Shown piece by piece: positions 44,718-64,000 of a stretch of 64,000 nucleotides of DNA. Every line of letters starts with the position of its first letter. Position 1 is the stretch's first letter. The stretch is from assembly GCA_963771355.1 (NCBI GenBank), contig CAVYTA010000006.1, forward strand, positions 1,504,001 to 1,568,000, in the 5' to 3' direction. The DNA is from an uncultured Candidatus Rokubacteria bacterium. Its GTDB lineage: Bacteria > Methylomirabilota > Methylomirabilia > Rokubacteriales > CSP1-6. The notes under the pieces are model-generated. The model made no database searches. It was not told the DNA's origin and worked only from the letters and a program-made list of their open reading frames with translations. Both the position numbers and the translations under genes were made by a program.

Positions 44718-47700
44718 TCAGGCCTCGACGCGCGCCAGCTCGGCCTCCGCGCGCGCCAACCAGAGCGTCATGCCCATCGCGCGGAGCAGCGACGCGGCCG
44801 CCGCCAGCTCGGTGCGGGCGTCGGAATCCCGTCCGAGGCGCCTGGAGAGAATCCCGCGGCCCAGGCGACATTGCGCGACAAGGGGCCGCATCCCGAACCG
44901 CTCCGCCAGGTCGATGGCCTCGCCATAGAAGGCCTCGGCGCGCTTGGCGTCGGCCCCCTCGCCCTGCGCCAAGACCTCTCCGCACGCGCGGAGGGCATGC
45001 GCCTCGTTGCCCCGTGTCCCGTGCTCGCGCGATAGCTCCAGCGCCTTCGTCGCGTGCTTGAGCGCCCGGTCCCGATCGCCGGCGAGGACCAAGGCCTCGC
45101 TCAGCCAGGCCGACCAGAGGGATTGCCTCGCGGTGATCCGGCGGGCCGCGCCCTCCTGCACCCCCTGCTCGAGCAAGGCGATCCCCTCTTCGTGCCGGCC
45201 GGCCAGCGCGTACGCGAATCCCAGGCTCGACTCGAGTCCGGCCAGCACGGCTCTGACGTCGCCGGCCCGGCTCAGCTCGAGCCCCTTCTCGAGCACGGGA
45301 ATGGCCTGGCCGAGGTCTCCCTTTCGCAGATGGAGGACGCCGAGCCCGATCAGCGCCTGGCCCAGGCTGAACGGGTGCTCGGCCGCCTCGGCGAACCTCA
45401 CCCCCTCTTCCGCATAGGCGAGCGCCTCCGCGAACTCGCCGCGCTCGGTGAGACAGCCGGCCAGGTAGGCTCGGGACGTGACGAACGGCATGCCCGCCCA
45501 CCCGAAGCGTTCCCGGGCGCGCTCCGCGGGCAGCGAGGCGATGGTCTTCCGCAGGCACTCGATCGCCTGCGGATAGTCCCCCACCCCGTAGTAAGCGAGC
45601 CCGAGATTGACGTTGGTCATCTGCAGGGAAAAGTCCCCGACGGCGTCGGCAATCTCGAGGGCGCGATGCCCGGACGCGATGGCGCCCGCCTGGTCGCCGA
45701 TCCGCCAGAAGTAGTGGCACATGTAGGCGGCGACCCAGCCGAGCCGCCGCTGGTCCTGGAGACGCTCGGCCAGGACCTGGGCCTGCTGGAGATTATCGAA
45801 GATGCGTCCCAGCTCACCGACGGCGAAGAACGCGTTCCGGAGGTCGAAGCGGAGATCGACCGCCTGCTCCAGCGTCTCGCGGCTCTCGGGCAAACGCTCG
45901 AGGGCGCCCAGCGCGTGCTCGAAATAGGTGATGGCGTCCCGGTTGGCCGAGCGCGCCATCGCCTTGGCGCCGGCCGTGCGGAGGTAGACCACCGCCTTGT
46001 CCCACACCTCGCCCCGCAGGGCATGGCTGGACACTCGCTCCGCCTGCTCCGCCAGCCGGTCGGGGTAGAGCCGCTCGATGGCGGCCACGATGCGCGCGTG
46101 CAGCGCGCGCCGCCGCTCGTGGAGCAGGCTTCCATAGGCCACGTCGTGGGTGAAGGCGTGCTTGAACGTGTACTCGATCTCCGGGAAGATCGCGGCCTCG
46201 TAGAGGAACTCCGCCGCCTGGACGCGGCTGAGGCCCTGGCGAAGGGCGTCCTCGGACAGCTCGGCGATGGCCTGGAGCAGCGGGAACGGAACGTCCTTGC
46301 CGATGACGGCGGCGGTCTGGAGGAGGCTCTTGTCCTCGAGCGAGAGCCGGTCGATCCGGGCCGCGAGCATGGCCTGGACGGTGGGCGGCACCTGGATGGC
46401 GTGCAGCGGCTGCGCCAGGTGGTAGCGGCCGCGCTCGCCCCCGAGCACGTGCGTCTCGACGAGGGTGCGCACGCTCTCCTCGAGGAAGAACGGGTTGCCG
46501 GCGGCGAGCTCGATGAGGAGATGCTTGGCGGGTCCGAGCGTGGGATCGTTGCCGAGCAGCGCTTCCAGCAGGGCGTCGGCGCTGCCGGCGGGCAGCTGAT
46601 CGATCCGGAGCTGGGTGTAGTAGCTCTTGTTCAGCCACCCATGCTGATACGCGGGCCGGTAGTTCACGAGCAGCAGCAAGCGCGCCCCGGGAATCCCCTC
46701 CACGAGGCTGTCGAGCAGGGCCTGGGTCTCGGCGTCGATCCAGTGCAGATCCTCGAAGAGGACCAGCAGGGGCTGGATCCGGCTCTCTCGGAGGAGGAGG
46801 TGGCGGACCGCGTCCAGGGTACGCTGACGGCGCTGCGGAGGATCGAGCGCCTCCCACCGGGGGTCGTCGACGGGCGCGCCCAGGATGGACAGCAGGGCCG
46901 GCAGGGTCGGCGCCAGCGTGTCCGCCAGCGACAGGAGCTTGCCGGTGACCTTCTCGCCGATCTTCCGCGGATCGTCCTGGTCCTCGATCTGGAAGTACGC
47001 CTTGAGGAGGTCGATGAGCGGTAGGTACGCGGTGGCCTTCGCGTACGAAACCGAGCGGCTCTCGAGGATCAGCCAGCCGCGGCAGCGATCGGAGCGGATG
47101 AACTCCCAGAGGAGCCGCGACTTCCCCACCCCCGCCTCGCCCACCAGTGCCACCACCTGGCCGTGGCCGGACCGGGCCAGCTCGAGCGCGTGGTGAAGCT
47201 GCTCGATCTCGCTGTCACGGCCGACGAAGCGGGTGAGGCCGCGGGCGTTGGACACTTGCAGGCGCGAGCGCGTCGGCCGCGTCCCCACCAGCTCGAACAT
47301 GGCCACGGGGTCGTGCAGGCCCTTGACCTGGACCGGACCCAGGGGCACCACCTCCACGTATCCCTCGACGAGCCGGAGGGTCTCTGCGGTGAGGGCGATG
47401 GTCCCGGGCCGCGCCATCTGCTCCATGCGGGCGGCGAGGTGGGTCGTCTGGCCGACCGCGGAGTAGTCGAGGTGCAGGTTCGTATCGATGGCGCGCACCA
47501 CCACCTCGCCCGAGTTCAGCCCGACCCGGATCCGCACCCCATCGTCGCCGCCGCGGCGAACCGCCGTCTGCATGGCGAGCGCGGCGTAGCAGGCGCGCAG
47601 GGCGTGGTCCTCGTGGGCGAGGGGCGCGCCGAAGAGGGCCATGATCCCGTCCCCCAGGACCTGGTTCACCGTTCCCTCGAAGCGGTGGACCGCCTCCATC

Positions 47701-48065
47701 ATCCGCTCGAGGATCGGATCGATGAGCCGGCGCGCCTCCTCGGGATCGCGGACGGCAAGGAGCTCCATCGACCCGCTCACGTCCGCGAACAGCACCGTGA
47801 CCTGCTTGCGCTCACCCTCCAGCGCGCCCCGCGAGGTGAGGATTTTCTCGACGAGGTGCCGCGGCGTATAGGTGTCGGGCGAGCTGAACCGCGACGGCCG
47901 CGCCGGGGCCACCGGCAACGACTTTCCGCACATGTCGCAGAAGCTATTGCCGGGAACGACGGTGGCGCCGCAGGCGGGACAGTGGTCCGCGAGGCGCGTC
48001 CCGCACTGTCGGCAGAACTGGGCGCCCGGGCGATTGTCCGCCCGGCACTGCTGGCACTGCATCAC
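44718..48065 (-). CDS. adenylate/guanylate cyclase with double zinc ribbon, AAA ATPase and TPR domains
   Basis: CxxC repeats, ERKQVTVLFAD, GDGIMALFGAP, GEAGVGKS, EDLHW, GNPFFLEE. Confidence 0.95.
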   Translation of the reverse strand: MMQCQQCRADNRPGAQFCRQCGTRLADHCPACGATVVPGNSFCDMCGKSLPVAPARPSRFSSPDTYTPRHLVEKILTSRGALEGERKQVTVLFADVSGSMELLAVRDPEEARRLIDPILERMMEAVHRFEGTVNQVLGDGIMALFGAPLAHEDHALRACYAALAMQTAVRRGGDDGVRIRVGLNSGEVVVRAIDTNLHLDYSAVGQTTHLAARMEQMARPGTIALTAETLRLVEGYVEVVPLGPVQVKGLHDPVAMFELVGTRPTRSRLQVSNARGLTRFVGRDSEIEQLHHALELARSGHGQVVALVGEAGVGKSRLLWEFIRSDRCRGWLILESRSVSYAKATAYLPLIDLLKAYFQIEDQDDPRKIGEKVTGKLLSLADTLAPTLPALLSILGAPVDDPRWEALDPPQRRQRTLDAVRHLLLRESRIQPLLVLFEDLHWIDAETQALLDSLVEGIPGARLLLLVNYRPAYQHGWLNKSYYTQLRIDQLPAGSADALLEALLGNDPTLGPAKHLLIELAAGNPFFLEESVRTLVETHVLGGERGRYHLAQPLHAIQVPPTVQAMLAARIDRLSLEDKSLLQTAAVIGKDVPFPLLQAIAELSEDALRQGLSRVQAAEFLYEAAIFPEIEYTFKHAFTHDVAYGSLLHERRRALHARIVAAIERLYPDRLAEQAERVSSHALRGEVWDKAVVYLRTAGAKAMARSANRDAITYFEHALGALERLPESRETLEQAVDLRFDLRNAFFAVGELGRIFDNLQQAQVLAERLQDQRRLGWVAAYMCHYFWRIGDQAGAIASGHRALEIADAVGDFSLQMTNVNLGLAYYGVGDYPQAIECLRKTIASLPAERARERFGWAGMPFVTSRAYLAGCLTERGEFAEALAYAEEGVRFAEAAEHPFSLGQALIGLGVLHLRKGDLGQAIPVLEKGLELSRAGDVRAVLAGLESSLGFAYALAGRHEEGIALLEQGVQEGAARRITARQSLWSAWLSEALVLAGDRDRALKHATKALELSREHGTRGNEAHALRACGEVLAQGEGADAKRAEAFYGEAIDLAERFGMRPLVAQCRLGRGILSRRLGRDSDARTELAAAASLLRAMGMTLWLARAEAELARVEA

Positions 48066-49547: not shown

Positions 49548-49955
49548 CTAGTCGTCGTCGCCGTCTTCACCGCGAACGGGGCCCCCCACCGGCTGGAGGC
49601 GCTTCGACCGCTCGAGGCGGTCCTGGCAGCGCACGCACGTGGTGACCTCGGGCATGGCCCGGAGCCGCGCCGGCGCGATGGGCTCCTCGCACTCCTGGCA
49701 GGTTCCATAGTCGCCGCCGCGCAGCCGCTCGAGCGCCTCGGCGAGCTTGTTGGCCCGCTCGACGAGCATGCTCCGGGTGGCGAAGCTCATCTCACGATCC
49801 TCGTTCAGCTGGATCAGATCCACCTCATCGGCCAAGGGGGTGTTGTCCCCGAACACGCCGGGGAACTCCTCGAACACCACCGCTCCGCCCATCCGGCGAA
49901 TCCGGCTGACGGTTGAACTCAGCTCGGTCTCAAGCCGCTTCTTGATCTCGTCCAT
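49548..49955 (-). CDS. TraR/DksA C4-type zinc finger protein
   Basis: DEVD at the coiled-coil tip; YGTCQECEEPIAPARLRAMP..TTCVRCQ. Confidence 0.92.
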   Translation of the reverse strand: MDEIKKRLETELSSTVSRIRRMGGAVVFEEFPGVFGDNTPLADEVDLIQLNEDREMSFATRSMLVERANKLAEALERLRGGDYGTCQECEEPIAPARLRAMPEVTTCVRCQDRLERSKRLQPVGGPVRGEDGDDD

Positions 49956-50011: not shown

Positions 50012-50027
50012 TGCAAGCGGCATGCCC
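50012..50027 (-). promoter_or_regulatory. sigma-54 promoter of the DksA-like gene
   Basis: GGGCAT-GCCGC-TTGCA with GG/GC 12 bp apart. Confidence 0.55.
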
Positions 50028-50188: not shown

Positions 50189-51685
50189 TCAGGGGCGGCG
50201 AAGTCGCTCCAGGGCCGTGAGGAGTTCCCCTAAGGTGGAGATACCCCGGCGCCCAAGGAGTTCGAGCAGCCGGACAAGCACCTCAGCTGTGGCCAGAGCG
50301 TCGCCCAAAGCCGAATGGCGGGCAAGTATGGTCACACCCAGCCGTTCACTCACCGCCTCGAGTGAGTGCGACACGTCCGAGCCATGGACGAGAATCGAGA
50401 TCAGCCGAGTATCGAGCACGGTGCGGTTCCCGGCCAGACGAGGCAGTCCGAGTCGTAGAGCCTCCGCCTCGAGAAACTCCAGGTCGAAAACGATCTCGTG
50501 GCCGACCAGCGGCGCCTCCCCGGCGTACCGGAGGAACGCCGGCAGGACCTCCTCCATCGGCGGGGCGGCGGCCACCATCGCGTCGGTGATGCCGTGGAAG
50601 CGCGTGCTGGCAGCCGGGATCGGGCGCCCTGGATGGATCAGCGCGTCGAAAGCTTCGTGCGCCCGCACCGTTCCCCCGCCCACTCTCACGGCCGCCAGCG
50701 AAACCACTCGATGGCCCTCCTGGAGGCGAAGCCCGGTGGTCTCGGTATCGAGCACCACGAACGTGAGGTCGGCGAGCCGTCGGGCGCGGCCGGCGGCGCC
50801 GGCTTCCCGCGCGACGGTATCGAAGTAAGAGAAGTCATACAGTAGCGGGCGGGGAGGTCCGGGCTCGCTGGCTCCGACCCCCGAGGTCAGTCCCGCCGCC
50901 GGCCGCCGGGGCGCGTCCACGCCCGGCACGGTTGCGGGCGCTCCCTCTGCGGAGCGCGCGGGATCGCGAATGGCAAGGATCAGCCCGATCACGTGCGCAT
51001 CGGCATTCGTGAGCGGCGTGACCCCCGCCTCGAGCAGTCCTTTCCCGCGCCGCTCCAGCCCGACCCGGCCGGACACGGGCTCGCCGCGCTTCACCCGCTC
51101 GAGCAGACCGGCCACGGGCTCGGGCTCGACGAGGTCGAGGAGCGAGCGGCCCAGCAAGGGCGCGCTCCCGACGAGTAGCTCGCTGGCCACGCGATTGGCC
51201 AGGGTGATCCGCCCATCGCCCGTCACCGCCACCACGCCCTCGTCCAGGTCGGCGAGTATGGCGGCGAGTCGGGCCCGCTCCTCCGCGAAGGCGCGCGTCG
51301 CCCGGAGCCCCTCGAGGTCCAGTGCACGCCGCGCTGCGGTCAACCGGTCGCCGAGGCGGTTGACCTCCTCCGCGAGGGCTTCCAGCTCATCCCCGGTCTG
51401 GAGCGCGATGCGGTGGTCCGGATTCACGGTGGCGATGAGCTCGGCTCCCCGCCGAATAGCGTGGAGATGACCTACGAGCGCACGGCCGAGCCCATGGGCG
51501 ACGAGAGCCAGGTAGCCCATTAGCGTCAATCCACCGATCGCGAGCGTGAGGGCCAGCGTAACAGGGTCCGCGAGCACCCCACGCCGGTAGAGAAGGTACA
51601 GCGCGGCGGCCGCGACCACGGTGGGCAGGGCGAAAAGCGCGAGGACGCCCGCGAGCAGCCGCCTTTCGAGGCTTCGACGTGCCAT
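50189..51685 (-). CDS. membrane-anchored HAMP-PAS-DEDDh exonuclease (DnaQ-like) fusion
   Basis: 2 TM; HAMP (TGDELEALAEEVN); PAS (EGVVAV..DGRITLAN); DTETTG, GH...FD, HSALGDA. Confidence 0.88.
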   Translation of the reverse strand: MARRSLERRLLAGVLALFALPTVVAAAALYLLYRRGVLADPVTLALTLAIGGLTLMGYLALVAHGLGRALVGHLHAIRRGAELIATVNPDHRIALQTGDELEALAEEVNRLGDRLTAARRALDLEGLRATRAFAEERARLAAILADLDEGVVAVTGDGRITLANRVASELLVGSAPLLGRSLLDLVEPEPVAGLLERVKRGEPVSGRVGLERRGKGLLEAGVTPLTNADAHVIGLILAIRDPARSAEGAPATVPGVDAPRRPAAGLTSGVGASEPGPPRPLLYDFSYFDTVAREAGAAGRARRLADLTFVVLDTETTGLRLQEGHRVVSLAAVRVGGGTVRAHEAFDALIHPGRPIPAASTRFHGITDAMVAAAPPMEEVLPAFLRYAGEAPLVGHEIVFDLEFLEAEALRLGLPRLAGNRTVLDTRLISILVHGSDVSHSLEAVSERLGVTILARHSALGDALATAEVLVRLLELLGRRGISTLGELLTALERLRRP

Positions 51686-51693
51686 GGGACGAT

Positions 51694-53190
51694 TCAGCTC
51701 ACGAGGTTGGTCTGGAAGCGGTCCTCGAGCATCCGCTGCAGCCAGCCCACCGTCTTGAAGGCCTCCTTGAGAAGGAGACGGTCCGACTTGCCGAGCCGGC
51801 CGGGATCGATCCAGTTGTCCGGGTCGAGCCCGGCGTCGAGCTGCTCGAGCTGATGTCCAAGCCGCAGCCGCGAGACGACCTCGAAGGCCTGGCGGAGATC
51901 ACGGGCCTCCTCGACCCTGATGGCTCCGCGAGCCTCCGCGGCGGCCAGGCGGTCGAGTGTGCTGGTCTCGGGAACGCCGAGCGAAAGCGCGTAAACCCGA
52001 AGAGCCTGGGTGACGGGGAAGATGGCGCCCGCCTTGAGGTCCAGCCGGCCCCGGAGCGGGCCGGACCGCGACACGGCGAAGCCTCCGAGCAGACCCAGCG
52101 GCGGCCGGCGCTCCAGCGCGTCCCGCGCCATGAAGCTGAGGAACAAGTGCGCGGAGGGGGCGCGTTCGCACAACCAGCTCCGCAGAGTCCCCGCGAGCGC
52201 CTCGTCGCCGGCCAAGGGGCGGAGATCGCAGTACAGCGAGGCAAAGAGGAGGCGCTTGGGCTCCGGCGTGTCGATCCAGTCGGCGAACTCCCCGAGCCAG
52301 GAAGACAGGGGGCGACGCCAGCGGGGATTCGACGCCATGAACCCGCCGGGACAGGGCGGAAAACCGAGGCGGGCCAAGGCGGCTTCCGCCGCCTCAGCGA
52401 ATCGCGTGAAATACGCTTCCGTGTTCCCCACGCGGTCGGGCGCCGGATCCGCATAGACGAGTCCATTGTCCTGGTCGGTTCGGAGCGTCTGCTCGCGCCG
52501 TCCCTCGCTCCCCACCGCCAGCCACGCGTACGCCACCGGCGGACGGCCGACCCCCTCCCGTTCCAGCGCCGCCTCGACGAGCGCGAGCGTGCGGCGAACG
52601 AGACGGTCGTTGAGCTCGGCGATGATACGACCGATTTCCACGGCGCCCACGCTCACGCCCGCGAGCCAGCCCACCACACGCTGGAGCCGCGGCGCCGTTG
52701 CGATCAGCGCATCCAGCGACTCGGCGGTGTCGATTTCGCGCGCGAGACCCACCGGGTGCGCGGCCTGGAGGCCCAGCAGGTCGTGACTCGACACGACGCC
52801 GATGAGTCGCCCTTCCTCGACCACTCCCAGGTGATGGAAGCCGCCACGCGTCATCTCAAGCAAGGCCTCGAAAGCCCGGACCGCCGGGCCGACGGACCGC
52901 AGCGGCGAGGACATGATCCCCGCCACCGGAGTGTCCCCGGGTAGCCTCCGGGCGACCACACGACTCCGCAGATCGCGGTCCGTCACGATGCCGAGGGGGG
53001 CTCCGGTGGCATCGGCGATCACGACGGAGCCGATGTCACGCTCCGTCATGAGGCGGGCTGCCTCGGAGACGGGCGTCGCCGGGGCGCAGGTCACGGGCGG
53101 CCCCTTGATGAGGTCGCGGGCGCTCCGCACGAACAGGGGCAGGTCGCCCCGCGCGCCGCCCAGACTGTCGAGCCCGGGCGGGCCGCTCAC
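51694..53190 (-). CDS. CBS-pair plus DUF294 (GlnD/GlnE-like) nucleotidyltransferase
   Basis: GIVTDRDLR; GSEGRREQTLRTDQDNGL; CPGGFMASNPRW; LDLK. Confidence 0.92.
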   Translation of the reverse strand: MSGPPGLDSLGGARGDLPLFVRSARDLIKGPPVTCAPATPVSEAARLMTERDIGSVVIADATGAPLGIVTDRDLRSRVVARRLPGDTPVAGIMSSPLRSVGPAVRAFEALLEMTRGGFHHLGVVEEGRLIGVVSSHDLLGLQAAHPVGLAREIDTAESLDALIATAPRLQRVVGWLAGVSVGAVEIGRIIAELNDRLVRRTLALVEAALEREGVGRPPVAYAWLAVGSEGRREQTLRTDQDNGLVYADPAPDRVGNTEAYFTRFAEAAEAALARLGFPPCPGGFMASNPRWRRPLSSWLGEFADWIDTPEPKRLLFASLYCDLRPLAGDEALAGTLRSWLCERAPSAHLFLSFMARDALERRPPLGLLGGFAVSRSGPLRGRLDLKAGAIFPVTQALRVYALSLGVPETSTLDRLAAAEARGAIRVEEARDLRQAFEVVSRLRLGHQLEQLDAGLDPDNWIDPGRLGKSDRLLLKEAFKTVGWLQRMLEDRFQTNLVS

Positions 53191-53627
53191 ACGGTAGGCG
53201 GACCGCTCCGCCCGCGAAGCCGCGCGGCGAGCGCGGAGAGCACCAGGTAGGTCGCGCCGGAGAGGTTGGCCAGCGCCACGAGCGCGAGGGCCGTGATGAG
53301 GAGCACCATGATCCGACCGACCAGGTGGTCGGCGCCCGCTTCGGGAGGCAGCTGCGGCCGCACGGCGAAGAAGGGGGTCAGGACGGCGACGGGGGCCAGC
53401 ACCACGGTAAGGACCAGCGCAAAGGCGGCGCGTCCCGTGCGCTCGAGAGGCGACTTCGTGAGACTTCCGCGCCGCTCGATCCGCACCCAGAGGGCGACCG
53501 TCACCCCAAAGGCCAGGACGAGGCTCGCGAGAAATGCGCCCTGAGACAGCCAGCGCAATGCCGCCGCTCCATAGGCGCCCACGAAGAGCCCGACGCCGAG
53601 CGCATTGATCGCAGCCAGGACCAGCAC
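53187..53627 (-). CDS. hypothetical membrane protein
   Basis: 4 hydrophobic segments; GTGA overlap with the DUF294 gene. Confidence 0.65.
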   Translation of the reverse strand: MLVLAAINALGVGLFVGAYGAAALRWLSQGAFLASLVLAFGVTVALWVRIERRGSLTKSPLERTGRAAFALVLTVVLAPVAVLTPFFAVRPQLPPEAGADHLVGRIMVLLITALALVALANLSGATYLVLSALAARLRGRSGPPTV

Positions 53628-53636
53628 GTCTCTAGA

Positions 53637-53927
53637 CTAGCCCAGGTTCGGGCCGCCCCAGCTCCCGAGGAAAAGCCGCATCCCGAACCAGATAACAGCG
53701 TAGAGCCCCAGTGCCAGCCAGCGGAGCCGGGTCTCGGATGTTCCATTCGGCACCAGCTTCCGGATGGGCCAGATCAGGGGGCGGGTCACCACCCCGAAGA
53801 ACCAGAGGAGCCGGCTCTCGGGCTTCCGGCTGAACCGTGCCACCAGGATGTGAAGGACCAGATAGACGCTTGCCGTGTAGGCGAGAAACCAGAGAAGCAC
53901 GGACAGCCGATAGATGAGGTCGCTCAT
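53637..53927 (-). CDS. small membrane protein (YggT-like)
   Basis: 2 TM segments flanking FFGVVTRPLIWPIRKLVP. Confidence 0.65.
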   Translation of the reverse strand: MSDLIYRLSVLLWFLAYTASVYLVLHILVARFSRKPESRLLWFFGVVTRPLIWPIRKLVPNGTSETRLRWLALGLYAVIWFGMRLFLGSWGGPNLG

Positions 53928-53982: not shown

Positions 53983-55905
53983 TCAGTGCTGGCCCAGCCC
54001 GATGCCCTGCGCGGACCGCGCGGTGGCCTGGCCGGACTTCGGATAGCGCACCGACACCACGAGGTCCTGGACGGACTTCGGCGGAGGCGCGGTGAGCAGC
54101 GAGACGATCCAGATGGTGAGGAATCCCGCCGGCAGCCCGAAGATGGCCGACGCGATGGTGAGCGTCCCGTACCACTGCAGGCCGTAGAAGCGGCTGCCGA
54201 TCATGTAAAAGGTGGTCACGCCGAGACCGACGATCATGCCGGCGACGGCGCCCGCCTTGTTCGCCCGCTTCCACCAGATGCCCATGACCAGCGCCGGGAA
54301 GAACGAGGCTCCGGCGAGGCTGAACGCCCAGGCCACCAGCTCGACGATGAGAGAGAGCCGGAACGTGGCCACCCACGCCGAGATCAGCGCGGTGACGATG
54401 AGGAGCACCTTGGTGATGGTGAGCCGCTTGGTGAGGGACGCCGAGGGGTCGATGACGTTGTAGTAGAGGTCGTGCGAGATGGCATTGGCGATGGTGAGCA
54501 GCAGGCCGTCCGCGGTGCTGAGGGCCGCGGCGAGGCCCCCCGCCATGACCAGCCCGGTGATCACGAAGGGCAGTCCGGCGATCTCCGGTGTGGCGAGCAC
54601 GACGAAGTCCGTGCTCTTCACGACGAAGTCCGCCCACTGCACGATGCCGTCTCCGTTCTTGTCCACGACGTCGAAGAGGCCGGCGGGCTTCCAGAGGGTC
54701 ACCCACCGCGGCAGCTCGGCGACCTTGCTACCGACGAGCTTGGCGTAGATCGCGAACCGCGCGAAGGCCGCGTAGGCCGGCGCGGTGAAGTAGAGCAAGA
54801 AGATGAAGAACAGGGACCACGCCACCGAGGTGCGCGCCTGGCGCACCGAAGGCGTGGTGTAGTAGCGCGTGAGGATGTGTGGCAACCCCGCCGTTCCGAC
54901 CATGAGGCAGAAGGTCAGGGCGAGGAAGTTCCACATCCCGATGCCGGTGGGCACAGTCAGGTAGTAGCCGAACTTGGCATCCTCGCTCGGTGCAGGCGGC
55001 CGGGCCTGGGCGAGCGCCGCCGCCCGTACCCCCGTCAGCCTGGCCCGATCCGACTCCGGCAGCGCGGGATCCTTGAGCTTCTCGGTGGCCTCGTCGGCGT
55101 CCTTCTTCCAGAGCGCCCGCGTCTCCTTTTCCTTCGCGTCCTTGGTGATCTCGATGGCGCTGGTGTTGTTTCGCTGGAGCAGCTGGCCGTAGGTGAGCTC
55201 GGGAATCGGGATGGAGAAGATCTGCCACGAGAGGTACACCACCGGCACCAGGTAAGAGATGATGAGGATGATGTACTGGGCCACCTGGGTCCAGGTCACC
55301 GAGCGCATCCCGCCCAGCACGGAGCAGAACAGCACGCCGAGGAGCCCCACGAAGACGCCGACATTGAAGTCGAGCCCGATGAATCGGGAGACGATCAGGC
55401 CCACCCCCGTCACCTGCGCGATCAGGTAGGTGAAGGAGCAGGCGACGGCGGCGATGACGCCGATGATCCGCGCGGCGGTGCCGCCGTAGCGGGCGCCAAG
55501 GAAGTCGGGAATGGTATAGGCACCGAACTGGCGGAGATAGGGGCCGAGGAAGACCGCGAGAAGCAGGTATCCGCCCGTCCAGCCCATGACGTAGGCGAGG
55601 CCGGCAAAGCCCTGGGCGGACAGCGCGCCACCCATCGAGATGAAGGACGCCGCGGACATCCAGTCCGAGCCCGTGGCCATGCCGTTATAGAAGGCGGGCA
55701 CGCCGCGGCCGGCGACGTAGTACTGGTCGGGATTGGAGGTCCGGGTCACGATGCCGATGAACACGTAGATGGCGAGCGAGAGCGCCATGAAGATCCAGCC
55801 GATCCACCGGTTGGGAAGCCCGAAGAAGATCTCGCCGATGCCGATGAGGATGGTGACGGCAAGAAACGCGACGGTATAGATGCCGAAGAGCTTGTCCAGG
55901 CTCAT
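53983..55905 (-). CDS. sodium:solute symporter (ActP-like cation/acetate symporter family)
   Basis: YYVAGR, NGMATGSDWMSAASF, YTIPDF, GTAGLPHIL, AAALSTADGLLL. Confidence 0.95.
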   Translation of the reverse strand: MSLDKLFGIYTVAFLAVTILIGIGEIFFGLPNRWIGWIFMALSLAIYVFIGIVTRTSNPDQYYVAGRGVPAFYNGMATGSDWMSAASFISMGGALSAQGFAGLAYVMGWTGGYLLLAVFLGPYLRQFGAYTIPDFLGARYGGTAARIIGVIAAVACSFTYLIAQVTGVGLIVSRFIGLDFNVGVFVGLLGVLFCSVLGGMRSVTWTQVAQYIILIISYLVPVVYLSWQIFSIPIPELTYGQLLQRNNTSAIEITKDAKEKETRALWKKDADEATEKLKDPALPESDRARLTGVRAAALAQARPPAPSEDAKFGYYLTVPTGIGMWNFLALTFCLMVGTAGLPHILTRYYTTPSVRQARTSVAWSLFFIFLLYFTAPAYAAFARFAIYAKLVGSKVAELPRWVTLWKPAGLFDVVDKNGDGIVQWADFVVKSTDFVVLATPEIAGLPFVITGLVMAGGLAAALSTADGLLLTIANAISHDLYYNVIDPSASLTKRLTITKVLLIVTALISAWVATFRLSLIVELVAWAFSLAGASFFPALVMGIWWKRANKAGAVAGMIVGLGVTTFYMIGSRFYGLQWYGTLTIASAIFGLPAGFLTIWIVSLLTAPPPKSVQDLVVSVRYPKSGQATARSAQGIGLGQH

Positions 55906-55908
55906 GGT

Positions 55909-56178
55909 CTAGGCCTCCTCCTGGATGCCATACTCTTGGTCCTTGGCGTTCATGAGCTTGGCGTAGACGGCGATCTCGATCACGAAGATGGCCAGCGAGC
56001 CCTGGGCCGCCATGTAGTAACCCATGGGGAATCCGAGCACGGTGAACTGGTTGAGCCAGCTCGCCATGATGCCCGAGATGATGTAGGTGACGACGAACCA
56101 GATGACGAGCAGGATCGTCGTCAGCCGGACGTTGTAACTCCAGTATTCCTCTTTCTCTCGTTCGGTCAGATCGGCCAT
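55909..56178 (-). CDS. solute symporter small subunit (DUF4212-like)
   Basis: EYW..N, LGFPMGYYMAAQGS; RBS GGAGGGG; directly upstream of the symporter. Confidence 0.92.
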   Translation of the reverse strand: MADLTEREKEEYWSYNVRLTTILLVIWFVVTYIISGIMASWLNQFTVLGFPMGYYMAAQGSLAIFVIEIAVYAKLMNAKDQEYGIQEEA

Positions 56179-56260: not shown

Positions 56261-56576
56261 CTAATGGTCTTCGGAGCGAGCCGGCGGGGCTTCAGACCGC
56301 GCGTGGGTCCGAGGACGATCGACCATCCAGTCCTCGGTCGAGCGAGAAGATCGCCCAGCCCGGCTCGGTGCCATCCCCATCTTCCGGTCGGGCTCCACCC
56401 GACCAGATGATGGCAGGCTTGGCAAGCGGCCATGGGCCTCGCCGCGCGTCGACCCGGGCGCGCACGCCTTCCGCGGATGAACCCGCGTCGAAGGTGAACG
56501 CGCCACCGACGAACGGAGTGCCGAAGTCCACCGAAACGAACACGAAGAGCCAGAAGGCGAGCCGACGCGCTCTCAT
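56261..56576 (-). CDS. small hypothetical exported/membrane protein (possible frameshift; in-frame stop at 56292)
   Basis: MRARRLAFWLFVFVSVDFGTPFVGGAFTF...; just downstream of a sigma-54 promoter. Confidence 0.4.
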
Positions 56577-56591
56577 CCGATGTCGAGCATT

Positions 56592-56707
56592 AGCACGGAG
56601 TGTGCCAGGCCCCTCGACCATTCCAACCAGTTAATTTCATGAGCTCGACGCGGCCGTCTGCACACGATCCTTGGTATCCGCACCATGGCGGCTTGGTATC
56701 TCTACCC
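56592..56707 (-). promoter_or_regulatory. sigma-54 promoter with tandem upstream activator boxes
   Basis: TGGCAC-ACTCC-GTGCT (56607..56592); TGGTATCCGCACCA (56672-56685) and TGGTATCTCTACCC (56694-56707), 22 bp apart. Confidence 0.7.
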
Positions 56708-60139: not shown

Positions 60140-61540
60140 TCAGCCGGAGCGCGGTGCGTCGCCGCCCTCCGCGGGCGCGATACGCCGCAACCCGTAGCGC
60201 ACCATCTTGTCGGAGAAGTTCTTGGGATCCATGTCGGCGTGCTTGGCGGCGGTGGTGAGCTTTCCCCCGTGGGCGTCGAGGAGACCCGCCACGTAGGCGC
60301 GCTCGAACTCCTCCACCACTCGCGCCTTGGCGTCGCGAAACGGCAGCGAGAGGTCTACCGCCGCGGGCGCGCCGCTGGGGGCCAGGAAGCGCTCCACCCC
60401 CGCAAGCACGTCGCCCTTGGCCACGATCACCGCGCGCTCGATCACGTTCTCCAGCTCGCGGACATTGCCCGGCCACGGGTAGGCGAGGAGGGCCTGCCGG
60501 CTCTCCGGCGCGATGCCGCGCAGGCTCTTCCGGCAGCGTCGGTTGGCGGACTCCAGGAAATGCTCGGCCAGCACCGGGATGTCCTCCGGCCGCTCGCGCA
60601 GCGGCGGCACCAGGATGGGCATCACGGCGAGGCGGTAGAACAGGTCGCGACGGAACGTCCCGCGCTCGGCCTCCGCCTGGAGGTCCTTGTTGGTGGTGGC
60701 GATGAAGCGGACGTCCACCTCCACCGGCCGGTCCGAGCCCACCGAGGTGACCTTCTTCTCCTCGATGGCGCGCAGGAGCTTGGACTGCAGATGCAGCGGC
60801 ATCTCGCCGATCTCGTCGAGCAGGAGGGTGCCACCGTTGGCCATCTGAAAGAGGCCGCGCCGGTGCTCGCTGGCGCCGGTGAAGGCGCCCTTCCGGAAGC
60901 CGAAGAGCTCCGACTCGAACAGCTCCGCCGGAATGGCCGCACAGTTCACCGCCACGAAGGGCCGCTCGCGCCGTGCGCCCGAGAAGTGTATGGAGCGCGC
61001 GAGCAGCTCCTTCCCCACCCCGGTCTCGCCGTGGATGAGGACGGTGGTGTCGAGGTCCACCACCGATTGCACGAGCTCGAACACCGCCTGCATGGACGCC
61101 CCCCGGGCGACGATGTTCTTGAAGGTGAAGCGCTCCTGGTTGCGGCGGATGGTGCGACGGCTCGCGGACTTGAGCTCCTGGAACTCGATGGCGCGGCGGA
61201 TGACGAGGAGCAGCTCGGCGACCTCGAACGGCTTGACCAGGTAATCCTCGGCCCCCAGCCGCATCGCCTCCACCGCCGACTCGATGGTGCCGTAGGCGGT
61301 CATCACCACCACCGCGAGGTCGGCATGGTCGGCCTTCACGCGCCGGACCAGCTCTACCCCGTCCATGCCGGGCAGCCGCTTGTCGGTGAGGACCACGTCC
61401 ACGTCCTCCACCTTGAGAGCGTCGAGCGCGTCTTCCGCACTCGGCACCGGGAGCACGTCATAGCCGGCCAGCTCCAGGGTCCGGTGAAGCGGCCGCAGGA
61501 ACACGTCGTCGTCTTCCACCAGCAGGATCTTCCGCTTCAT
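60140..61540 (-). CDS. sigma-54-dependent response regulator (NtrC family)
   Basis: REC (VEDD, TDKRLP), GETGVGKE, ESELFG..KGAFTGA, WPGNVRELEN, C-terminal HTH. Confidence 0.96.
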   Translation of the reverse strand: MKRKILLVEDDDVFLRPLHRTLELAGYDVLPVPSAEDALDALKVEDVDVVLTDKRLPGMDGVELVRRVKADHADLAVVVMTAYGTIESAVEAMRLGAEDYLVKPFEVAELLLVIRRAIEFQELKSASRRTIRRNQERFTFKNIVARGASMQAVFELVQSVVDLDTTVLIHGETGVGKELLARSIHFSGARRERPFVAVNCAAIPAELFESELFGFRKGAFTGASEHRRGLFQMANGGTLLLDEIGEMPLHLQSKLLRAIEEKKVTSVGSDRPVEVDVRFIATTNKDLQAEAERGTFRRDLFYRLAVMPILVPPLRERPEDIPVLAEHFLESANRRCRKSLRGIAPESRQALLAYPWPGNVRELENVIERAVIVAKGDVLAGVERFLAPSGAPAAVDLSLPFRDAKARVVEEFERAYVAGLLDAHGGKLTTAAKHADMDPKNFSDKMVRYGLRRIAPAEGGDAPRSG

Positions 61541-64000
61541 GACTCCCCTCCCGTGGCGATGGGATGGACCGCCGCCGCCGGCAGCGCGATGCGGACGCGA
61601 GTCCCCCCTCCCGGCGTGCTTTCGACCGTGATGTCGCCGCCGTGCAGGTCGACGATCTTCTTGACGATGGACATGCCGAGCCCGGTGCCCGACGGCTTCG
61701 TGGTGAAGAAGGGCAGGAAGATCTTCTCGCGGTCCTCGGCGCCGATGCCCACGCCGGTGTCGGACACCTCCACCACCACGCGGTCGTGATCGGCGCGCAG
61801 GTCCACCACCACCCGGCCGCCGCCCGCGCGCGGATCGATGGCCTCCAGCGCATTCTGCAGCACGTTGGCGAAGACCTGGCGAAGCTTCTGCCCGTCGCCG
61901 ACCGCCACCAGGTCCCGATCGGTTCGTCCATACGTGACCGTGATGTCGCGCGGGCGCCCGGTGGCGGCGGCCGACTCCACCACCGGATCGAGGATGCGCA
62001 TCACCTCGTACTCCGCCCGCTCCAGCCGCGTGTCGCGCGTGTAGTCGAGGAGGCTGTTGATGATCCCCTCGATCTCCCCGATGCCCGCCAGGATGGCGCG
62101 CGCCATCTCCTGCGACAAGGGCCGCGCGTCGAGATCGTCGGACGAGAGCAGGTTGGTCGCCATCTTGATCCCGCCCAGCGGGTTGCGGATCTCGTGGGCC
62201 ACACCCGCCGCCATCTCGCCGAGCGACGCCAGCTTCTCTCGCTGAATGAGCCGGCGCTGGGTCTCCACCTGCTCGGTGAGGTCGCGGAGCACGCCCACCG
62301 TGCCCATGAGCTGCCCGCGCGCGTCGAAGATGCAGCGGACGGCGAGGTGAGCGGGAAACGTCTGCCCCGCGCCGGTCACCCCGGCCACCTGCCCGCTCCA
62401 CCCCGTCCCGCCCACCACCGCTCGCGCGATGGCGGGGGCGGCGCGGCGGCGGTCGTCGGGGCCGAGCAGATCGGCGTAGCCGAGACCGGTGAGCCCGCGA
62501 TCGCCCAGGCCGAGCAGTCGCTGGCCGGCGGGATTCATGGTAACGAGCCGCCCGTTGACGTCGGCGGTGAAGATGCAGTCGTCCACGCTCTGGACCACAG
62601 AGGCGAGCAGGCGCTCGCCGCGCCGCACCTCCTCCTCGCTGACCTTGAGCGACTCCTGCATCTGGTGGAAGGAGGCCACCAGCTGCTGCGCCTCGTCCTT
62701 GGAGATGGTGAACCGGTCCTCCACGATCATGCGCGCGGCGGCGGCGCCCAGGGGGGCGGCGAGCAGGCGCTCGAACCGGATGCGCAGCTCGAGCAACTCC
62801 GGCACCGAGAGATCGGTGGGGGACTTGCCCCCGAACAGCTCCCGCGTGATGGCGCGCGCCTCTTCCTCGCCGACGAAATGGTGAACCAGCCGCTCGATCT
62901 CGGTGGGCGACAGGATGGCGGGCGCGCCCGCGCCGCCCTTGTCCTCCCCGCGCGCGCCCACGAAGGCGGCGGCCTGGGCCCGGTCGTCCCCGCGCTGCTC
63001 GGTCAGGAGAGAGACCAGGACGAAGAGCCCGGCATTGAGGAAGAGCGACCAGAACACGCCGTGGCTCAGCGGATCGAGCCCCTCCAGGCCGAGAAAGGCG
63101 GTGGGCCGGAACAGGCCGAGGCCGAAGGGGCCGTCGACGAGGAAGGTCGCCGTCAGCACCCCCTCCCTCTCCAGCGCGGGGATGATGAGGGTGTAGAGCC
63201 ACATGAAGAAGCCCGCCGAGATCCCTGCGAAGGCGCCCTGGCGGTTGCCACGCCGCCAGTACAGCCCGAGGAGGATGGCGGGCGCGCACTGGCTCACCGC
63301 CACGAACGACAGTAGTCCCATCTCCACCAGGAGGAACTGGCCGCGCTCCAGCCGCGCCCACATCAGACCCAGCGCCACCACTCCCAGCATCGCCAGCCGC
63401 GTGTAGAAGAGGGTGATCCAGTAGATGTCCTCCATGCTGCGGCGGCGCAGGAGCATGGGCAGGATCACGTCGTTGGTGATCATCTTGGAGAGCGCGAGCG
63501 AATCGACCACGATCATGGCGGTGGCGGCGGAAAATCCGCCGAGGAACACCACGATCGACATGAGCCGGTGGTCGAAGTGCAACGGCAGCCGGAGGATGAA
63601 GCTGTCCGCCTGCGCGCCCGCCTCCGGGAACACGGAGAGCCCGGCCAGCGCGATGGGCAGGACGAAGAGGTTGATGAGGAGGAGGTAGAGCGGAAACGAC
63701 CACGACAGGGTCCGCACGTCCCGCTCCTGCGCGTTCTGCACCACCAGGACGTGGAACTGGCGGGGCAGGAACATCACCGCCATCATCGAGATCACGAGCA
63801 TCGCCGCCCAGCGCGAATAGGAGGCGGTGGGGGGCTGGTCCAGGGTGAGGAGCCGCGACCAGCCGGGGTGCGCGGTGGCGCGGCCGAAGAGATCACCGAA
63901 GCCGTCGAAGAGCCCCCAGGTGACGTACACCCCCACGCAGAGAAAGGCCACCAGCTTGACCACGGACTCCACCGCCACCGCGGTCATGAGACCGGTCTGG
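61537..64000 (-). CDS. SLC5-fused PAS histidine kinase (CrbS/CbrA-like; 5' end outside window)
   Basis: ESVVKL, FLPRQFHV, GGFSAATAM, STAC-like ERLLAAPLGAAAAR, PAS, AHEIRNPL, QNALEA, FFTTK..GTGLG. Confidence 0.93.
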   Translation of the reverse strand, partial: QTGLMTAVAVESVVKLVAFLCVGVYVTWGLFDGFGDLFGRATAHPGWSRLLTLDQPPTASYSRWAAMLVISMMAVMFLPRQFHVLVVQNAQERDVRTLSWSFPLYLLLINLFVLPIALAGLSVFPEAGAQADSFILRLPLHFDHRLMSIVVFLGGFSAATAMIVVDSLALSKMITNDVILPMLLRRRSMEDIYWITLFYTRLAMLGVVALGLMWARLERGQFLLVEMGLLSFVAVSQCAPAILLGLYWRRGNRQGAFAGISAGFFMWLYTLIIPALEREGVLTATFLVDGPFGLGLFRPTAFLGLEGLDPLSHGVFWSLFLNAGLFVLVSLLTEQRGDDRAQAAAFVGARGEDKGGAGAPAILSPTEIERLVHHFVGEEEARAITRELFGGKSPTDLSVPELLELRIRFERLLAAPLGAAAARMIVEDRFTISKDEAQQLVASFHQMQESLKVSEEEVRRGERLLASVVQSVDDCIFTADVNGRLVTMNPAGQRLLGLGDRGLTGLGYADLLGPDDRRRAAPAIARAVVGGTGWSGQVAGVTGAGQTFPAHLAVRCIFDARGQLMGTVGVLRDLTEQVETQRRLIQREKLASLGEMAAGVAHEIRNPLGGIKMATNLLSSDDLDARPLSQEMARAILAGIGEIEGIINSLLDYTRDTRLERAEYEVMRILDPVVESAAATGRPRDITVTYGRTDRDLVAVGDGQKLRQVFANVLQNALEAIDPRAGGGRVVVDLRADHDRVVVEVSDTGVGIGAEDREKIFLPFFTTKPSGTGLGMSIVKKIVDLHGGDITVESTPGGGTRVRIALPAAAVHPIATGGES

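Follow-up and report, generated by a model that had tools for sequence, protein, structure and literature searches.

A transferase and exonuclease gene pair behind a symporter

The DNA considered here (the window, 64,000 nucleotides at positions 1,504,001 to 1,568,000 of contig CAVYTA010000006.1, GenBank assembly GCA_963771355.1) belongs to an uncultured Candidatus Rokubacteria bacterium whose genome is 99.8% complete; relatives carry the source labels Methylomirabilota or Rokuibacteriota. Its minus strand holds two genes separated by 8 nt and encoding 498 residues each: a CBS-CBS-DUF294-DUF294_C nucleotidyltransferase (P0002; 51694..53190), a candidate writer of a nucleotide tag, and a DEDDh exonuclease of short form (P0001; 50189..51685), a candidate eraser, in which a membrane hairpin, HAMP, PAS and a linker precede the catalytic domain. 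A first-pass annotation had placed both at the end of a symporter gene run, and the same-strand order is indeed DUF4212, VC_2705 symporter, two small membrane genes, transferase and, last, exonuclease. The VC_2705-family sodium/solute symporter (640 residues; 53983..55905; 719 bits to TIGR03648, cut-off 321) is the candidate target, together with its DUF4212 small subunit (89 residues; 55909..56178, true start 56178), recognized by profile matches. The acs gene lies outside this run, with a CitMHS_2 gene on the opposite strand between them. The pair is a real, intact module and a variant of a known pair whose function is unsolved. A writer and eraser of nucleotide tags is its best reading and the transporter the best target, a judgement in which belief and doubt are about evenly balanced.

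The transferase matches two CBS domains, DUF294 (residues 168-312, E 7e-46) and DUF294_C (349-492, E 6e-44) in Pfam, and its scan, which gave only these families, revealed no removing domain in the same chain. Alignments were made for each of the two proteins from the query and its best 120 matches (of 372 and of 1,500 listed). Residues G227, S228, D239, D241, D322 and K386 are present in 121/121 aligned transferases, so the intact GS..DxD nucleotidyltransferase behind a CBS pair, as first annotated, stands; the motif runs from G227 to D241 (52468..52512, minus strand) and was read in other loci as well. CBS ligand motifs have the form G-h-h-T/S-x-x-D, and both are intact in the pair (residues 22-142; 52765..53127, minus strand), which by family analogy is likely an adenylate sensor. 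An N-terminal cyclic nucleotide (cNMP)-binding domain is absent by Pfam, unlike in longer relatives, and this short class makes up 57/121 of the aligned sequences. A 645-codon open frame around DUF294 was considered as a source of a hidden cNMP domain and rejected, its upstream part having no start codon or domain and overlapping a neighbouring four-helix gene. Elsewhere in the genome a 902-residue frame gives a weak separate DUF294 match.

In the model of the transferase (predicted local distance difference test, pLDDT, 93) the best fold among 48,161 PDB representatives is DrrA (Z 23.3, root-mean-square deviation (rmsd) 4.0, 299 residues aligned), followed by two GlnE domains (Z 22.7, rmsd 2.9, 316 aligned; Z 22.0, rmsd 3.6, 330 aligned). 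The other top 50 entries are CBS matches and a second DrrA entry, and Foldseek was concordant. A sequence search of solved structures gave no match to the transferase domain. The protein is thus modelled with a GlnE/DrrA-type fold, that is, a Pol-beta fold with a helical substrate-binding domain, and shares with GlnD, GlnE and DrrA both this arrangement (Z 22-23) and an intact catalytic Asp triad, at 12-16% identity. DrrA and GlnE modify protein tyrosines, and this fold match favours transfer of a nucleoside monophosphate (NMP) to protein as the putative activity. The top 50 contain no cGAS/DncV, poly(A) polymerase or CCA-adding enzyme; in a whole-chain search dominated by CBS rows, this does not exclude them. 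GlnD removes its tag through an HD domain and GlnE through a second transferase domain; here the eraser would be a separate DEDDh protein. The grouping of DUF294_C with GlnD/GlnE has been published (PMC3710099).

The exonuclease matches RNase_T (residues 310-470, E 5e-31) and PAS (139-243; 50957..51271, minus strand). Its DEDDh domain (50276..50758, minus strand) has D313, E315, D401, H457 and D462 in 121/121 aligned sequences, and the DxE of ExoI, the D of ExoII, the HxxxxD of ExoIII and the RNase-H-like fold are all present. By hydropathy and model, a two-helix membrane hairpin (residues 8-66; 51488..51664, minus strand) has helices at 8-34 and about 41-66, and because the loop between them counts only about 6-8 residues the protein has no outside sensor domain. 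Pfam at E<=0.01 missed HAMP in this protein and matched it in 66%-identical relatives and in P0028, so that the earlier description of an intact DEDDh domain fused to two membrane helices, HAMP and PAS is confirmed with HAMP assigned by homology only. HisKA and HATPase gave no Pfam match. A conserved YDF linker motif (50831..50839, minus strand) precedes the exonuclease domain, and its tyrosine recalls the glutamine synthetase site; as an essential acceptor it was rejected, being Phe in several relatives and the motif being absent in stand-alone forms.

The best folds to the exonuclease model (pLDDT 80.5) are the PolC (Z 24.5), DinG (Z 21.5) and epsilon (Z 20.9) exonucleases, with Cap18 at Z 17.9. 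The fold and the five catalytic residues are shared with PolC, DinG and DnaQ; this protein differs in its membrane anchor, its signalling domains and its patchy occurrence, which follows that of DUF294. A housekeeping DNA polymerase III epsilon in an incidental position would agree with the label "DNA polymerase III subunit epsilon" used by the sources, and with the exonuclease domain being the sole match to itself in this genome. This explanation is scarcely credible: the protein is membrane-anchored and scores 93.1 against a cut-off of 222.7 for the dnaQ_proteo equivalog TIGR01406, passing the domain model TIGR00573 alone, and the family is found at E<=1e-40 in 28/151 genomes of the phylum and tracks DUF294 across phyla.

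Distribution of the pair and reduction of the exonuclease

A P0001 profile gave at least 600 matches in GTDB, and the best 80 loci, 45 of them of at least 15 kb, were counted. DUF294 is present in 66/80 of these loci, from many phyla, and in 38/45 of the longer ones, a pairing far above chance; the first-pass annotation was right that the two genes go together and that their function is unsolved in print. The 45 longer loci contain a stand-alone symporter in 29 cases and Acs in 12. Within the window's phylum a strong DUF294 match was found in 31/151 genomes, 29 of which have an exonuclease in the locus, while one has a PHP-fused form and one ends at a contig end. The 29 exonucleases comprise 4 long, 7 short (including this one), 2 further reduced and 16 stand-alone forms.

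A DEDDh protein also partners DUF294 in 26/36 Bacillota loci, and DUF294_C is matched in 113/251 Bacilli genomes. Other loci have a calcineurin-like phosphoesterase (L146) or an RNase_H_2 protein (L149) as partner, PHP is fused to DUF294 in one chain in L105, P0243 and P0245, and in L076 DEDDh is fused to CBS-DUF294. Judged from their sequences, the partner phosphoesterases are interchangeable and represent three unrelated families (DEDDh, PHP and calcineurin-like). The HD domain of GlnD offers a parallel for a phosphoesterase partnered with a transferase. No exonuclease adjoins three Bacillota copies whose DxD motif is damaged or unmatched (L140, L141, L147); four or five intact DUF294 copies are likewise without one or at a contig edge.

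The stand-alone partner exonucleases have N-termini with a median amphipathic moment of 0.51 (n=36) against 0.33 for 1,978 control N-termini, and 14/36 exceed the 90th percentile of the control, exonuclease start sites being guessed in this comparison. These amphipathic N-termini suggest that the eraser is held at the membrane in every form.

Some variants of the pair were noted in passing. The same three CBS-DUF294 proteins L140, L141 and L147 are followed by a D-Ala-D-Ala-ligase/peptidase fusion downstream and are possibly repurposed as sensors. Betaproteobacterial loci (L037, L046, L060, L061, L063, L064, L067, L070) have tandem DUF294 genes behind a sensor exonuclease, one CBS-less and one with CBS, the motifs being intact in both. 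A symporter in pieces (L092:6290-8678) and split or frameshifted DUF294 genes (L108, L096) were also seen, where assembly error and decay are not distinguished.

The exonuclease had been said to sit where a kinase output would normally be. This does not describe the family well: in 48/121 relatives of about 720 residues the exonuclease follows, rather than replaces, a HisKA/HATPase-like segment placed behind PAS, and the histidine of this segment is present in 2/30 pattern-matched sequences, 18 being unmatched. Compared with the long form, this exonuclease lacks about 225 residues of dead kinase. Long forms are part of a cassette of receiver, dead-kinase-exonuclease and SLC5-kinase, which has the same membrane-HAMP-PAS front, YDF linker, exonuclease, and DUF294 and symporter neighbours as the present locus. 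A receiver gene is found upstream of 44/52 long vs 1/9 short forms in GTDB loci with room for it, and of 4/4 long vs 0/7 short forms in the phylum; 38/62 long vs 0/16 short forms have a large kinase next to them.

Unlike the long-form cassette, this copy has no dead kinase, and none of the cassette's receiver, dead kinase and kinase appears to have an orthologue in its genome. A tblastn search of this genome with the dead-kinase segment of relatives gave no match, the cassette kinase had no full-length match in it, and its best receivers have 43-52% identity where cassette receivers share 80-91%. A FastTree phylogeny of the exonuclease region, which has modest support (0.72 for the main short clade) and no topology test behind it, places the short forms at two positions, either next to long forms or nested among them, and the outgroup is mostly long. 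At matched exonuclease identity the PAS identity is 0.42 in short and 0.58 in long forms (1,314 and 782 non-independent pairs). For PAS, the ratio of nonsynonymous to synonymous substitution rates (dN/dS) ranges over 0.16-0.52 across 7 pairs of short forms and over 0.19-0.29 across 3 pairs of long forms, values which rule out neutral decay of the domain.

We infer that the short form is a deletion derivative of the long form, in which the dead kinase was deleted and the phosphorelay lost, and which would retain the membrane anchor and a PAS domain under relaxed yet purifying selection. The "signal-gated" eraser of the first-pass annotation is therefore weakly supported here, since the short form has lost dead kinase, receiver (48/56 long vs 1/16 short forms) and cassette kinase and the constraint on PAS is relaxed; gating may belong more to the long relatives than to this copy. 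As a reduced copy, the locus adds less than the family does, its interest being that of a natural deletion separating the membrane anchor from the phosphorelay input.

Importers, targets and a possible nucleotidylation switch

The importers that precede the pair are unrelated and include VC_2705 and ActP/DUF485 symporters, a sodium/sugar symporter (in a gal operon), an MFS gene and Amt. The role in acetate uptake proposed at first is not tenable as a specific one, because the pair also stands behind ammonium and sugar importers. In counts that treat related genomes as separate, and so overstate their independence, DUF294 occurs in 27/28 phylum genomes with VC_2705 vs 4/123 without it, and in 14/16 Bacillota genomes with VC_2705 vs 18/235 without it; the co-occurrence figure with DUF485 is 9/18. 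In 10 of those 14 Bacillota genomes VC_2705 and DUF294 are on separate contigs or at least 16 kb apart, where contig breaks may hide adjacency.

At ammonium channels the pair appears to take the place next to the importer that PII has elsewhere; GlnK gates AmtB. Of 255 amt matches in 251 Bacilli genomes, 150 were listed. DUF294 lies within 3.5 kb of 71 of these and PII within 1.5 kb of 34, while 0 have both and 45 neither; at one DUF294-linked amt a weak PII-like match lies at a distance of 2.4 kb. In the 121 Bacilli genomes with a single amt (one duplicate row dropped), PII is present in 0/49 with short DUF294 and in 33/72 without it. The exonuclease is present in all 23 DUF294-linked amt loci fetched. 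The amtB-DUF294-dnaQ operons of Bacillales have been marked before (Table 1, footnote d; PMC3412718), and in the available part of that paper no function is proposed for them. The table lists no glnK for 6 species whose sole amtB is DUF294-linked, and none likewise in 14/26 other amtB rows (PMC3412718). These operons have the same enzyme pair directly behind the importer, and differ from the present locus in having an ammonium channel, a CBS-less short transferase and a stand-alone exonuclease.

The closest described relatives are PP_0354 and PP_0353 of Pseudomonas putida KT2440 (Pflu5625 and PA3233/PA3232 elsewhere), of the MxtR/ErdR (CrbS/CrbR) regulon, which have the same order of CBS-CBS-DUF294 and DEDDh genes and the same link to a monocarboxylate symporter. 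Here the transferase has no cNMP domain, the exonuclease has two membrane helices, HAMP and PAS, and the symporter is of the VC_2705 type; a predicted sigma-54 promoter and a nearby SLC5-PAS kinase and NtrC-type regulator are further differences. The genes pp_0354-pp_0353 form an operon controlled by ErdR, and growth on pyruvate is impaired by loss of pp_0353, and alike by loss of actP-I, but not by loss of pp_0354, while on 20 mM acetate growth is unaffected by loss of pp_0353 or actP-I (PMC9927547). A 2026 preprint restates these findings and adds that deletion of yjcH also impairs growth on pyruvate; it suggests a protein-modifying role for PP_0354, whose function it calls unclear (bioRxiv 2026.09.07.749794). 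No phenotype was found for Pflu5625 (PMC5715377), and PA3232-PA3235 rise on propionate (PMC9765439).

The PolC, DinG and epsilon folds would suit a true nuclease that acts on RNA, whether to trim or to degrade it; possible substrates are membrane-located mRNAs for the transporter or for metabolism, and tailing by the transferase might or might not take part. For PP_0353, mRNA degradation has been speculated upon by the authors of its study (PMC9927547). The transferase has no RNA-binding domain in Pfam, losing the exonuclease has the effect of losing the transporter and not of an excess of it (PMC9927547), and PHP and calcineurin-like partners can replace the exonuclease, all of which makes this quite improbable. 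Alternatively, one enzyme might synthesize and the other break down a small nucleotide signal or a nucleotidylated metabolite, through which uptake or metabolism would be controlled indirectly. Interchangeable phosphoesterases would fit a synthase and degrader equally well, the folds listed for the exonuclease include Cap18 and Orn-like enzymes, and the sensor domains of the family (cNMP, CBS, Cache, PAS) are typical of messenger enzymes. We regard this as improbable, the best transferase folds being those of protein-modifying enzymes, far above the rest; a conserved receptor gene was not seen in the loci, and the transported solutes (carboxylate, sugar, ammonium) are without common chemistry.

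With a writer and eraser acting on protein, the target may instead be a soluble enzyme, such as Acs or another acyl-CoA enzyme in carbon loci and, in a GlnE-like role, glutamine synthetase in nitrogen loci. The closest transferase folds include GlnE, Acs directly adjoins DUF294 in L121 and L134, and propionate growth is impaired in both P. putida mutants with no effect of ActP loss (bioRxiv 2026.09.07.749794). Acs had been named as a possible target at the outset and is a weaker one than the transporter, being present in 12 against 29 of the 45 longer loci and, here, outside the operon; the P. putida mutants are normal on 20 mM acetate, where Acs is essential (PMC9927547; bioRxiv 2026.09.07.749794), and both the membrane anchor and the mutual exclusion with PII next to amt genes suggest a target in the membrane. 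A soluble target is thus unlikely, although it retains some weight.

If the transporter is the target, the CBS-DUF294 protein would close uptake by placing a nucleotide, probably AMP, on a hydroxyl residue at the cytoplasmic side of the symporter or of one of its small subunits, and the membrane-anchored DEDDh enzyme would reopen it by taking the tag off. The CBS pair would sense adenylate charge. This protein nucleotidylation, its transporter target, the off and on senses of writer and eraser, and the adenylate input are what we infer from intact active sites, the GlnE/DrrA fold and the common position of the genes behind uptake transporters. In long relatives, control of the eraser would come from a receiver and a transporter-like kinase and run through the dead kinase segment. 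In this copy, which has lost the phosphorelay input, the N-terminus likely acts mainly to hold the protein at the membrane, any PAS control being residual at most, and the CBS pair and sigma-54 transcription would be the likely means of regulation. The chemistry of removal is plausible by analogy: oligoribonuclease, a DEDDh enzyme, hydrolyses the aryl ester p-nitrophenyl-TMP (pNP-TMP), and the same paper cites this activity for epsilon (PMC6768110). An aryl-NMP ester resembles Tyr-O-NMP, and removal of NMP from a protein by a DEDDh enzyme may therefore be feasible.

Several points weigh against this proposal. The closest folds of the eraser are DNA exonucleases, and we know of no DEDDh enzyme that removes NMP from a protein. 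The literature search, which covered few subscription papers, returned no biochemistry for either enzyme, no account of a sensor-fused exonuclease and no writer/eraser model for a transporter. On propionate pp_0353 and pp_0354 mutants both grow worse and loss of actP-I has no effect (bioRxiv 2026.09.07.749794), a result that a simple off/on switch on ActP does not predict. Neither symporter nor Amt was found within about 12 kb in 23/36 Bacillota loci (74 neighbours scanned, not all), no importer is among the annotated neighbours in 2/5 plasmid loci, and a glutamine-synthetase-like gene, read from translation, stands between amt and DUF294 in L158-L160, which would favour the soluble target. 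The kinship of the genomes counted also reduces the force of the co-occurrence figures.

The acceptor is a further weak point. The symporter tail is R-Y-P in 22/49 and aliphatic-P in 22/49 sequences, so that the R-Y-P tyrosine is not supported as a universal acceptor. The Amt Y-P-E tail is present in 23/23 DUF294-linked and 0/20 PII-linked channels, and as a DUF294 marker it was discarded, since it is found also in 17/40 unlinked Amts, including 7/21 from genomes with no match to DUF294; it is a lead to the acceptor, no more. Complex prediction with the transferase domain, symporter, ATP and Mg speaks neither for nor against the proposal, its scores being 0.18 and 0.11 where the mark is 0.32 and no controls were folded.

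The wider proposal, that DUF294 and a phosphoesterase form a widespread PII-independent covalent switch on importers, with GlnE-like AMPylation of the cytoplasmic face of the transporter, a DnaQ-fold protein de-AMPylase and, in long forms, a phosphorelay acting on the eraser via the dead kinase, is tentative, and we lean somewhat against it. The acceptor in such a switch would perhaps be the tyrosine of the Amt Y-P-E tail and, here, Tyr621. DUF294 with a "dnaQ" neighbour is found in many phyla, and in Pseudomonas it ranks with the strongest targets of the acetate-switch regulator. Were the proposal true, reversible nucleotidylation of transporters would be an added mode of uptake control, a DEDDh "exonuclease" would gain a protein substrate, and control of ammonium entry in many PII-less Bacilli would be explained.

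Promoter, regulators and neighbouring genes

A sigma-54 (-24/-12) operon promoter is predicted at 56593..56607 (minus strand) from its recurrence in the phylum: a site with at most 1 mismatch lies upstream of DUF4212 in 10/21 phylum loci vs 0/42 control segments, and within the window alone the site is not above chance. Upstream of acs, at 60140-64000 (minus strand), are an SLC5-PAS-histidine kinase, which extends past the window end, and an NtrC-type regulator, both recurring in phylum loci and, as judged from their domains, a putative sigma-54 counterpart of CrbS/CrbR. Together with the promoter site they suggest a regulator other than CrbS/R (MxtR/ErdR).

Between symporter and transferase, two small membrane genes (53187-53927, minus strand) of no Pfam family are retained across the phylum, and in some Bacillota (L130, L134, L135, L145) unnamed membrane genes of 140-170 residues occupy the same slot; they are candidate accessory subunits or targets. 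The first encodes 96 residues (53637..53927) and has relatives behind the symporter in the phylum. It is YggT-like as a lead only, YGGT being its third Atlas match (0.91), a family found on 16% of members. The second encodes a four-helix protein of 146 residues (53187..53627) with no matched Pfam or Atlas family, and its stop overlaps the transferase start.

A 94-residue open reading frame (ORF; 56292-56576, minus strand) between the sigma-54 site and DUF4212 has a hydrophobic N-terminus, a conserved D-x-x-x-P-F-x-x-G-A-F-x-F motif and a variable tail, and no Pfam match. Its relatives occur in 12 phylum loci, with at least one further copy in the same genome; from these features the family could be a leader or arrest-type peptide. 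A JAB-domain gene of opposite orientation comes after the amt-DUF294-exonuclease operon in L150 and L151, and L152 has an ORF of similar size.

Rfam gave no match in the window. DNA near-identical to it is present in soil and rhizosphere sequencing runs, and two RNA libraries of a single study yielded contigs that span parts of the two genes, which cannot show transcription. Downstream of the exonuclease, a second sigma-54-like site (50013-50027, minus strand, 1 mismatch), by itself not above chance, lies upstream of a DksA/TraR-like gene (49548-49955), and a protein of 1,115 residues (44718-48065, minus strand) combines a zinc ribbon with adenylate/guanylate cyclase, AAA and TPR domains.

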